Assembly: GCA_964449465.1 (NCBI GenBank)
Contig: CAYVBK010000015.1
Coordinates: 1-64,000, forward strand
Length of the DNA: 64,000 nucleotides
From: an uncultured Anaerolineae bacterium
GTDB taxonomy: Bacteria > Chloroflexota > Anaerolineae > JAFGEY01
Direction: 5' to 3'
Of this stretch, positions 61,954 through 62,360 are shown one piece after another. The notes under the pieces are model-generated. The model did no database searches. It worked only from the letters and a program-made list of their open reading frames with translations, and was not told the DNA's origin. The translations under genes and the position numbers were made by a program. Within the stretch, counting starts at the first letter, position 1. Each line of letters begins with the position of its first letter.

Positions 61954-62360
61954 CTAGGAGGCCGCTGAAAAAGTCTATTTTTACCACAAAGGACACCGAG
62001 AACACAAAGGTTTACGATACTTTTGAGTCGCTAAAAATGCTTTGTGTTCTTTGTGTCTTGGTGGTGAGAGGGTTTTTCAGCACGCTCCTAGGAGGCCACT
62101 GAAAAAGTCTATTTTTACCACAAAGGACACCGAGAACACAAAGGTTTACGATACTTTTGAGTCGCTAAAAATGCTTTGTGTTCTTTGTGTCTTGGTGGTG
62201 AGAGGGTTTTTCAGCACGCTCCTAGGAGGCCACTGAAAAAGTCTATTTTTACCACAAAGGACACCGAGAACACAAAGGTTTACGATACTTTTGAGTCGCT
62301 AAAAATACTTTGTGCTCTTTGTGTCTTGGTGGTGAGAGGTTTTTTTCAGCACGCTCCTAG
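61954..62360. mobile_element. Head-to-tail array of three MITE-like units (134 bp period).
   Basis: Units at 61954-62087, 62088-62221 and 62222-62355 are >97% identical. Each junction shares CCTAGG (..cagcacgctcctaggaggccactgaaaaag..). The internal inverted repeat is acaaaggacaccgagaacacaaagg / ctttgtgttctttgtgtc. Confidence 0.85.

Follow-up and report, generated by a model that had tools for sequence, protein, structure and literature searches.

At positions 61954–62360 of the window, by which we mean the whole 64,000-nucleotide stretch of uncultured Anaerolineae DNA that was analyzed, we found three head-to-tail units of 130 or 131 bp with one CTAG between neighbors, repeating with a period of 134 bp. 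All three units are on the plus strand. T1 (61958–62087, 130 bp, GAGGCCGCTGAAAAAG...CTTTTTCAGCACGCTC) and T2 (62092–62221, 130 bp) have the single CTAG at 62088–62091 in common, and T2 is joined in the same way to T3 (62226–62356, 131 bp) through the CTAG at 62222–62225. Two further CTAGs, at 61954–61957 and 62357–62360, form the left and right target-site duplications of the array. Unit-to-unit identity ranged from 96 to 99%, T1 and T2 being 99% identical and T3, which carries several private differences including a 1-nt insertion, being 96 to 97% identical to either of them. The original prediction of a triplet of 134-bp units joined at CCTAGG was thus borne out: Tandem Repeats Finder reported 61953–62360 with a period of 134, 3.0 copies and 98% matches, and CCTAGG occurs just three times in the 64 kb, at the left edge of the array (61953) and at both internal junctions (62087 and 62221). 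The right edge reads CCTAGT. The copy number of the triplet comes from one assembly, since every short-read metagenome contig of the same strain is broken within the repeats. The organism is present in the samples ERR4510095, ERR4539292 and ERR14964770/74/80. A simple promoter and terminator scan placed the array between the terminator of 62581–63069 and a promoter-like site for 61328–61828.

Each unit has imperfect terminal inverted repeats, GAGGCCRCTGAAAAAG on the left and GAGCGTGCTGAAAAAC on the right, with about 12 of 16 bases matching, so that the right end differs from the left end of the same element at about 4 of 16 positions. These ends were observed in all close copies, and the terminal-repeat pattern GGAGSNNRCTGAAAAAS, searched with at most one mismatch, occurs 11 times in the window compared to 0.06 expected from shuffled sequences. 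The interior is a long imperfect palindrome without a gene, and one unit (T2) folds into a hairpin with nearly all bases paired (-64.2 kcal/mol, z = -8.5). The only open reading frames are read-throughs of 61 to 69 aa. A protein search with such a read-through pseudo-peptide gave three database matches, all aligned to the MITE-encoded segment, one of which corresponds to a further copy at the DNA level. The inverted repeats, strong internal hairpin and absence of coding capacity that had been predicted are therefore all present, the repeats in imperfect form and with a length of about 16 bp.

Copies in the window and in related genomes

A BLASTN search of the window with one unit gave minus-strand matches at 1011–1144 (89.6% identity, E = 6e-48), 30608–30741 (88.8%) and 33476–33594 (89.9%), and weak relatives near 45168–45361 and 49156–49198 (the latter with E = 1.5e-4). 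The predicted copy coordinates were correct to within a few bases. At least seven copies had been predicted; we counted six close copies, two diverged relatives and one half-copy. Most of them are intergenic, and they lie in either direction with respect to transcription, as DNA transposons would. One single copy (30607–30736, minus strand) lies between znuA (29589–30587) and an ABC ATPase gene (30751–31605), that is, inside the znu operon as predicted, and is flanked by CAAG at 30603–30606 and 30737–30740, which reads CTTG on the strand of the element. Another (33475–33606, minus strand) has one diverged end (GAATCC for GAGGCC) and CTGG/CCAG on one side only; it is abutted by a solo terminal-repeat-like fragment, GTCCGCTGAAAAAA, at 33457–33470. 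On the plus strand, a diverged relative of 162 bp (45168–45329) has the ends GAGTCCACTGAAAAAA and TTTTTTCAGGAGAGTC and a core of CACCAAG-type repeats, and directly beside it lies a second, more degenerate relative (45334–45468) with a core of GCCGAGA-type repeats and the right end TTTTTTTCAGCGATCTC. For this pair, an empty-site comparison upstream of the MoxR gene showed that neither synteny nor the intergenic sequence was conserved in the relatives. Finally, 49153–49205 (plus strand) is probably a left half-copy, consisting of a terminal repeat and the start of an arm. A full degenerate copy near 49150 was rejected, as its apparent right end is a fragment of a response-regulator gene in which the codons E-R-L-K read GAGCGGCTGAAAAC.

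The copy at 1010–1139 (minus strand) provides evidence of insertion. It splits a gene for an OmpR-type response regulator on the minus strand, as had been predicted from its position inside a gene. The N-terminal 25 codons (MIGCAPCVLVADDDPDTRDILATYL) are at 1141–1215, after which the frame hits a TGA inside the terminal repeat of the element, and the other 200 codons (VHYGCVVWPAVDG...) are at 404–1006 in a different frame. Deletion of 134 bp (130 + 4) from 404–1215 restores the frame, and the resulting protein of 225 aa can be aligned gap-free with four intact homologues (three with 225 aa, one with 220 aa), to which it is 91, 78, 77 and 76% identical. Moreover, the intact response-regulator genes in L144 and L141 have no insert at that site. 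The homologue with 91% identity (P0004) lies on a contig of the same length (107,854 bp) as that of a MoxR protein 100% identical to the one in the window; it may therefore be a paralogue from this very genome and not an empty allele. The element has clearly inserted into this response-regulator gene and disrupted it.

Further copies were found in related organisms (L139/L140, L144 and L149), and related genomes also contain decayed and truncated copies. A cyanobacterial host for L139 (PatA_N domain) was considered and dropped, as a protein of the window has its closest named homologues in Anaerolineae MAGs (83 to 86% identity). The activity of the family had been described as recent. This holds for the array, with its 96 to 99% identity between units, but not for the rest: since the dispersed copies are 83 to 91% identical to one another and the relatives carry decayed remnants, only the array looks young.

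Target sites and duplications

Short direct repeats were found at both sides of the array (CTAG/CTAG), of the copy at 30607–30736 (CTTG/CTTG), of the copy in the response-regulator gene (in minus-strand reading, CTGG at 1140–1143 and CTAG at 1006–1009) and of the copy in L139 (CTGG/CTGG). No flanking duplication was detected at two degenerate copies, 33475–33606 and the one in L144. The target thus has the form CNNG, seen as CTAG, CTTG, CTGG and CCAG at only five informative insertion sites. These flanks point to a 4-bp duplication upon insertion at CNNG; most targets are CTNG, and CTAG is frequent among them. As the element ends overlap with the target, the sequence alone does not fix this length (2 to 5 bp fit formally, with 2, 4 or 5 bp all compatible), and 4 bp was chosen by homology with the GAGG...CCTC ends of full-length elements. 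CTAG itself is depleted sixfold in the window, with 41 occurrences compared to 240 expected. A preference for CTAG or CCTAGG had been proposed. Short palindrome-like targets including CTAG are indeed used, but their range is broader and extends to CTTG, CTGG and CCAG.

Altogether, a 130-bp unit without a transposase gene, terminal inverted repeats, flanking duplications, dispersed copies and evidence of insertion show that the repeat is a nonautonomous transposon derivative (MITE).

Relationship to IS1182-family insertion sequences

Insertion sequences of about 1.7 kb that encode IS1182-family transposases, from metagenomes and a Priestia plasmid, have ends identical to the left terminal repeat GAGGCCRCTGAAAAAGTC. 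More than 120 metagenome stretches contain the exact 19-nt left repeat GGAGGCCRCTGAAAAAGTC; in 21 of these it is followed by an open reading frame homologous to IS1182-family transposases, and about 12 are complete elements of 1.67 to 1.81 kb with the matching right end CTTTTTCAGYGGCCTC. Transposase proteins of this group scored 356 and 291 bits with the NCBIfam model NF033551 (IS1182 family), whose cutoff is 270, whereas all IS5, IS982 and ISNCY models remained below their own cutoffs for the same proteins. The Pfam domains of the transposases encoded between these ends are DUF772, DDE_Tnp_1_6 and DDE_Tnp_1. In Priestia megaterium (NZ_CP071473.1), the exact repeat flanks a gene annotated as IS1182 family transposase, and GAGGCCACTGAAAAAGTCTAT from this plasmid agrees with unit T2 in all 21 bases; in Peptoclostridium acidaminophilum (NZ_CP007453.1), the repeat flanks an annotated IS1182 family transposase gene with one mismatch. 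Other short elements sharing these ends are common in metagenomes. A scan of viral contigs with the terminal-repeat pattern returned one unrelated short element (L018) whose ends are the same and whose duplication is 9 bp long, and two core patterns gave no match in viral contigs. There was likewise no BLASTN match of one unit to the PLSDB plasmids, and a literature search by sequence string returned only unrelated primers.

The transposase had been expected elsewhere in the genome, and tblastn with IS1182 transposases indeed detected none in the window, nor in the contigs of the relatives, which are few and of about 10 kb. All full-length elements found with this terminal repeat make duplications of 8 to 9 bp, compared to 4 bp for the family in the window; the cognate transposase would therefore belong to a different sublineage or behave differently. 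A 4-bp duplication lies outside this sampled 8- to 9-bp sublineage but within the range of the IS1182 family. Indeed, passages on ISPse1, a member of this family, give 4-bp direct repeats (PMC3281130), and passages on MITEs derived from ISMac2, another member, describe a length of 160 bp and a 4-bp repeat (PMC3852290).

Thus, the family very probably consists of MITEs derived from an IS1182-family insertion sequence, and presumably moved in trans by it, in an uncultured Anaerolineae. The terminal repeats of about 16 bp would be the ends at which the transposase of the parent insertion sequence binds. For mobilization, another locus of the genome would have to supply an IS1182-type transposase whose target cut is staggered by 4 bp. 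In all likelihood, the copies are passengers whose effect on the host is neutral or mildly harmful. They may affect mRNA stability or termination, for example in the znu operon.

Origin of the triplet

Two origins of the array were weighed. The one we favor, and to which we give an even chance of being correct, is that the triplet began by insertion into the CTAG beside a resident copy. A new copy would insert into a CTAG flanking the resident one, resulting in a dimer with one shared CTAG, and the third unit would be added by a second such insertion or by unequal exchange between the 134-bp repeats. In Drosophila, tandem transposon dimers have been attributed mainly to insertion-site preference (PMC5932611). 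Elsewhere in the window, insertion beside resident copies did take place, because duplication cannot yield the abutting elements of different subfamilies at 45168–45468 or the solo end that abuts the copy at 33475. Moreover, since CTAG is rare in the window, a CTAG created by insertion would be a relatively prominent target.

The other origin, which falls somewhat short of an even chance, is purely local tandem duplication: a slipped or unequal exchange between the two CTAGs flanking one element would yield a dimer, which homologous unequal exchange would then extend, all without another transposition event. Consistent with this, identity among the units is 96 to 99% but does not rise above 91% in comparisons with any other known copy, and the units have private changes in common, such as CTAAAAATG. 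All three are arranged head to tail, and the period of 134, equal to the element plus one duplication, is also what exchange would yield. The lack of a transposase detectable by tblastn in the window and in the contigs of the relatives points in the same direction. However, the first step of local duplication requires recombination on only 4 bp of homology, and neither the abutting subfamilies nor the solo end at 33475 is explained by it. The growth of the array by reinsertion at CTAG, as originally proposed, is plausible, but the data fit unequal exchange equally well.

Inner arm and alternative identities of the repeat

The 33-nt left inner arm TTTTTACCACAAAGGACACCGAGAACACAAAGG recurs at 88 to 97% identity in Planctomycetota, Acidobacteriota, Anaerolineae and other MAGs. 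In Fimbriiglobus, it lies inside a MITE with completely different terminal repeats of 22 nt (CAGGGCTG...) and a 10-bp duplication. Such a distribution could mean that the inner hairpin is an independent, horizontally spreading module and not random filler, a reading that we consider unlikely. If it were true, MITEs of unrelated transposase families in different phyla would have acquired or kept the same core, and this core might have a function under selection, as a hairpin or as a site bound by a protein, or it might be a small palindrome that is itself mobile and nests in other elements.

The conservation of part of the inner arm across phyla is also what might be expected of a host-selected repeat, either REP-like or a structured RNA (terminator, mRNA stabilizer or small RNA gene), that is not derived from a transposon. 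The very stable hairpin, the mostly intergenic location of the copies and the presence of one in the znu operon, whose transcript could be made more or less stable by a hairpin, are consistent with this notion. However, Rfam at gathering thresholds gave no match in the whole window, and searches of the array with E values up to 10, together with a scan of four cross-phylum loci, returned only chance matches to miRNA hairpins (at most 24 bits). There was no covariation signal for a selected hairpin, with 1 compensatory pair among 42 over nine copies, although these copies are too similar to be informative. The simple scan detected no promoter-like or terminator-like site within the array units, the copies occur in both orientations relative to transcription, and one of them destroys the response-regulator gene. 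Furthermore, the left end is identical to insertion-sequence ends and 4-bp direct repeats flank the copies. REP/BIME sequences, as defined in the abstract of PMC3733652, are palindromes of 20 to 40 bp that carry the tetranucleotide GTAG or CGTC and go together with RAYT transposases; the present repeat, with 130 bp, no GTAG or CGTC head and insertion-sequence terminal repeats, was rejected as a member of this class. Lack of terminal repeats or of target duplications at other copies had been named as the sign of REP-like repeats, and this did not materialize: the terminal repeats are present in all close copies, and duplications flank the array, the copies at 1010–1139 and 30607–30736 and the one in L139. 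We thus regard a host-selected regulatory repeat as very improbable.

The transposase itself had been suggested to be IS630/Tc1-like or IS5-like. IS630 elements target CTAG and duplicate TA, and IS5 elements duplicate a 4-bp YTAR sequence. A MITE of the IS630/Tc1-mariner family or of the IS5 family proper, inserting at CTAG and duplicating TA or CTAG, would account for the CTAG flanking the array and one side of the copy at 1010–1139, but is hardly credible, because the central duplicated bases include TT (30607–30736) and TG (L139 and one side of 1010–1139) as well as TA, which excludes the strict TA duplication of IS630/Tc1, because CTTG and CTGG are not YTAR, and because the transposases tied to this terminal repeat pass the IS1182 model and fail all IS5 models. 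Nevertheless, IS5 was not far off as a suggestion, because the DUF772 and DDE_Tnp_1 domains are common to the transposases of IS1182 and IS5.

Discussion

The family analyzed here is a known kind of element, an IS1182-type MITE, of which it is a new member; nothing about it is unexpected in kind. Correia elements, RUP and Nezha are likewise short, noncoding, hairpin-forming and dispersed, have terminal inverted repeats, occur occasionally within genes and are moved in trans, but their parent insertion-sequence families, ends and target duplications differ from those of the present element. The IS1182 insertion sequences with GAGGCCACTGAAAAAG ends (for example on the plasmids NZ_CP071473.1 and NZ_CP007453.1 and at the metagenome loci L020, L102, L107 and L137) have the same terminal repeat as the family in the window, with GAGG...CCTC at the ends, and resemble it in their preference for short palindromic targets. 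In contrast to the 130-bp element without transposase, they are autonomous elements of 1.67 to 1.81 kb that encode a DDE transposase of 480 to 505 aa. Their duplications of 8 to 9 bp, often in the loops of terminator-like hairpins, differ from the 4-bp CNNG of the window family, and their hosts were mostly Bacillota, whereas the host here belongs to the Chloroflexota.

Closer in kind are the ISMac2 MITEs of Methanosarcina acetivorans, which passages of PMC3852290 describe as multicopy elements of 160 to 169 bp from the IS1182 family with 4-bp repeats, and ISPse1 of Paracoccus seriniphilus, for which passages of PMC3281130 report 4-bp direct repeats like those found here. The hosts are an archaeon and an alphaproteobacterium, respectively, and the terminal repeats are 25 to 26 bp and 16 bp long. 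In contrast to the triplet, no tandem arrays are reported in the same passages. For the array itself, the closest likeness is with the tandem dimers of Drosophila (McGurk & Barbash 2018, PMC5932611), which are head to tail, have one shared target duplication and later expand into arrays. Those are full-length eukaryotic elements whose mechanism was established from population data, whereas the mechanism proposed for the triplet is inferred only.

With respect to the annotation of this Anaerolineae lineage, the repeats explain the fragmentation of its short-read assemblies, as well as spurious open reading frames of 60 to 70 aa, one chimeric open reading frame of 326 aa and the response-regulator pseudogene. 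With respect to the IS1182 family, conservation of an end of about 20 bp extends from Bacillota to Chloroflexota, but the duplications differ in length, and this difference of 8 to 9 bp versus 4 bp is a usable natural contrast on what sets the stagger of the IS1182 target cut. Finally, the triplet illustrates on a small scale, in a bacterium, how a preference for certain targets could give rise to tandem arrays.

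A tandem array and dispersed copies of one element

A tandem repeat was called at 61953-62360 with a period of 134, 3.0 copies and 98% matches. Its order could be read directly as CTAG-T1-CTAG-T2-CTAG-T3-CTAG, where T1 (61958-62087, 130 bp), T2 (62092-62221, 130 bp) and T3 (62226-62356, 131 bp) are the array units and the CTAG sites start at 61954, 62088, 62222 and 62357. Within the 64 kb, CCTAGG was found at the left array edge and the two internal junctions and nowhere else. Alignment of the copies defined an element of 130 bp with left end GAGGCCRCTGAAAAAGTC and right end GTTTTTCAGCACGCTC; this element plus one duplication gives the period of 134. 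BLASTN with one unit detected three more full copies on the minus strand (~1011-1144, 30608-30741 and 33476-33594; 89-90% identity to the array unit, E 1e-42 to 6e-48), together with weaker relatives near 45168-45361 and 49156-49198. Moreover, a degenerate terminal-repeat pattern occurred 11 times in the window, against 0.06 expected by chance. The original prediction, a head-to-tail triplet with scattered single copies, was thus confirmed by tandem-repeat call, direct reading, BLASTN and end-pattern count, with coordinates off by a few bases at most. At both loci checked, contigs assembled from short reads of the same strain stop inside the repeats, consistent with many copies; the figure of three array units is that of one assembly.

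The terminal inverted repeats are imperfect (~16 bp, ~12 positions matching) and enclose a long imperfect palindrome. One unit forms a single, nearly fully paired hairpin (-64.2 kcal/mol, z = -8.5, for the plus strand; -54.3 kcal/mol for the minus strand), the arms of which are composed of CACNRAGR motifs with ~9-nt periodicity. Covariation was uninformative, with 1 of 42 pairs compensatory. Rfam gave zero matches at gathering thresholds, and chance miRNA-hairpin matches alone at E up to 10. ORFs in the element comprised nothing beyond read-throughs of 61-69 aa; one of them, searched against 5.8 billion proteins, matched three small peptides, all on the MITE-encoded segment, and the one checked on DNA (P0001, in the related contig L139) was read from another copy of the repeat.

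Elsewhere in the window, in-frame tandem repeats of 18 nt and 36 nt (e.g., ATAGCCGTCATCTGGCCG x6 and CCAACCAACACACCTGTG x~4) lie at 22604-22713, 38021-38070 and 55709-55890. At least two of these three tracts overlap long ORFs (20344-24489 and 55352-56230), and they probably represent repetitive linker peptides. A restriction-modification pair occupies 57289-59648 on the minus strand, where an ORF with a BsoBI-type endonuclease domain adjoins an N6/N4 DNA methyltransferase, the domains having been called on identical Logan contigs.

One copy disrupts a response-regulator gene

An OmpR-type response-regulator gene of the minus strand is split by the copy at 1010-1139. The gene's first 25 codons (1215-1141, minus strand, MIGCAPCVLVADDDPDTRDILATYL) are in a frame that reaches TGA within the terminal repeat, and the last 200 codons (1006-404, minus strand, VHYGCVVWPAVDG...) are in a different frame. 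Excising exactly 134 bp, the element and one flanking tetranucleotide, rejoins the gene as TAC CTN GTC. The resulting protein of 225 aa aligns without gaps to four intact homologues, of which three have 225 aa and one has 220 aa (91, 78, 77 and 76% identity), and the intact response-regulator genes of L144 and L141, two related contigs, are uninterrupted across the insertion site. Taken together, the rejoined frames, the gapless homologues and the uninterrupted relatives show that the element was really inserted here and destroyed the gene.

The closest intact homologue (P0004, 91%) is identical to the split regulator over most of the middle of the protein, the differences being concentrated within residues 1-70 and close to the C-terminus. 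Its contig equals in length (107,854 bp) one that encodes a MoxR protein 100% identical to that of the window, so P0004 may be a paralogue from the very genome of the split gene, possibly shaped by gene conversion. A response-regulator gene fragment (LELLERLKTLDPTPEIILL) at 49240-49300 on the minus strand adjoins a half-copy of the element. Its codons for E-R-L-K read GAGCGGCTGAAAAC, a chance resemblance to the terminal repeat.

The ends are those of IS1182-family elements

When metagenomes were scanned with the left end of 19 nt, GGAGGCCRCTGAAAAAGTC, the matches listed comprised more than 120 stretches, in DNA of 25-72% G+C. In 21 of the listed matches, the repeat is followed by an ORF starting M..QQQ..LSPY..LYDL.IPKDN.LRQIN, many of these with a terminator-like hairpin and a TATAAT box in between, and about a dozen of the matches listed are complete elements of 1.67-1.81 kb with right end CTTTTTCAGYGGCCTC. 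Two representative ORFs passed the NCBIfam IS1182-family model (356 and 291 bits, cutoff 270) and fell below cutoff on every IS5, IS982 and ISNCY model. Their Pfam domains are DUF772, DDE_Tnp_1_6 and DDE_Tnp_1; the remaining ORFs behind the repeat are 42-67% identical to them. In a tblastn search of plasmids, the same protein was annotated "IS1182 family transposase" in Peptoclostridium, Clostridium, Priestia, Bacillus, Enterococcus and other genera. The Priestia megaterium element (NZ_CP071473.1) starts with GAGGCCACTGAAAAAGTCTAT, equal to unit T2 over 21 bases, ends with GTTTTTCAGTGGCCTC and is flanked by a duplication of 8 bp (GTAAAAAC). In the Peptoclostridium element, that left repeat has a single mismatch (GAGGCTACTG...) and the duplication is 9 bp long.

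Since its left end is common to elements with an IS1182 transposase, the window element is a MITE (a short non-autonomous transposon) with IS1182-type ends. Other short elements (100-450 bp) that share these ends but have unrelated interiors were common among the metagenome loci. Neither the window nor the contigs examined from relatives encode an IS1182 transposase. IS630/Tc1 is excluded as parent by duplications other than TA and by what the terminal repeats are, and IS5 proper by the model scores, notwithstanding the domains common to IS5 and IS1182. Another MITE with the same left end, at ~67-230 of metagenome locus L103, has arms of CCAACCTCCAAC-type short repeats; short periodic motifs in the hairpin arms may be a general trait of MITEs with such ends.

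Target duplication and site preference

The array is flanked by CTAG/CTAG, the copy at 30607-30736 by CTTG/CTTG, that at 1010-1139 by CTGG/CTAG and that in L139 by CTGG/CTGG. Because the element ends G...C and the targets are palindrome-like, a 2-, 4- or 5-bp duplication fits equally; we took it as 4 bp because homologous full-length elements end exactly GAGG...CCTC, with variable flanks. A strict TA duplication was ruled out by the central dinucleotides TT and TG. On these flanks, the target would be CNNG, mostly CTNG. CTAG is ~six-fold depleted in the window (41 observed, 240 expected from base composition), with element boundaries accounting for 5 of the 41 sites. CCTAG is ten-fold under-represented (7 observed, 69 expected).

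All sampled full-length elements and other MITEs sharing these ends have 8-9-bp duplications, whereas the window family has 4 bp. The longer duplications often lie in palindromic or terminator-loop targets. At L020, L045, L086, L107, L145 and L146, loci outside the window, IS1182-family elements or same-ended MITEs recurrently occupy short palindromes or the loops of terminator-like hairpins (e.g., GCCGACTTAAAGTCGG and TTGTCAATTGACAA), which suggests that the 8-9-bp subgroup favours hairpin or palindromic targets. The 4-bp value lies within the known IS1182 range, since published 4-bp members exist. They are ISPse1 (1653 bp, 16/16-bp inverted repeats, 4-bp direct repeat, captured experimentally; PMC3281130) and the ISMac2-derived MITEs of Methanosarcina acetivorans (160 bp, 14 copies, 4-bp direct repeat; PMC3852290). 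The element adds to the known IS1182-family MITEs; its combination of these ends with a duplication of 4 bp is unusual.

The inner arm recurs in other phyla

The core CACAAAGGACACYGARAACAC gave 12 single matches among GTDB species representatives, in MAGs of Planctomycetota, Acidobacteriota, Anaerolineae and other groups. Across phyla (loci L004-L015), the match to the left inner arm of 33 nt (unit positions 26-58, for instance 62112-62144 of the window) spans ~24-33 nt with 88-97% identity. In two Fimbriiglobus contigs (L004 and L008), the arm lies within a ~150-bp MITE with a 10-bp duplication and unrelated 22-nt terminal repeats (CAGGGCTG...), which we take to resemble ISAs1 ends. Several other matches form one arm of a plain long hairpin, and a partner arm was not evident in about four of the 12. 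In unrelated metagenome DNA (0.8 Mb), the generic arm motif was uncommon, and Rfam returned no family match on the cross-phylum loci. This core might be the sole part of the finding that is new in kind. A second long hairpin in L004 (1295-1462), with spurious plant-miRNA Rfam matches of 42-51 bits, is probably another MITE.

Origin of the triplet

Two routes yield exactly the triplet structure. By re-insertion, a new copy would enter the CTAG flanking a resident copy; by duplication, which is equally consistent with the structure, unequal exchange would occur between flanking CTAGs and later between whole units. The head-to-tail order of all units, the private substitutions common to them and an array subtype without any other known copy speak for duplication. 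However, duplication cannot produce the abutting elements of different subfamilies at 45168-45468, nor the solo end fragment that abuts the copy at 33475. The rarity of CTAG as a target in the window was counted for re-insertion and so, by analogy, were the tandem transposon dimers of Drosophila, whose documented origin is insertion-site preference (PMC5932611). We give re-insertion roughly an even chance of having been the seeding step.

Functional setting, spread and age

The array lies between the terminator (62560-62532) of 62581-63069 and a promoter-like site for the YbaK-like gene at 61328-61828; a simple scan found no promoter-like or terminator-like sites inside the units. One copy sits between znuA and an ABC ATPase gene of a Zur/ZnuABC-type cluster, and copy orientation relative to transcription is mixed. 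A REP-like or RNA-gene element is contradicted by the insertion that disrupts a gene, by ends of insertion-sequence type, by the direct repeats at the flanks, by the element size and by the lack of an RNA-family match in Rfam. A passenger element is the simplest reading; the copy in the zinc cluster might affect how znu mRNA is processed.

For the MoxR ATPase of the window, the nearest named homologues (83-86% identity) belong to Anaerolineae MAGs. Among related contigs, L139/L140 (two JGI metagenomes) carry a family copy at 89% with its CTGG duplication, L144 (GCA_053495155.1) one at 80% with no duplication left, and L149 a truncated one beside a CbiQ gene, at an apparently orthologous position. 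The suggestion that the element was recently active is unsupported in general: array units are 96-99% identical to one another and alone look recent, whereas dispersed window copies are just 83-91% identical. Given this divergence and the decayed or truncated copies in relatives, the MITE family is old in this lineage, its recent look being confined to the array.
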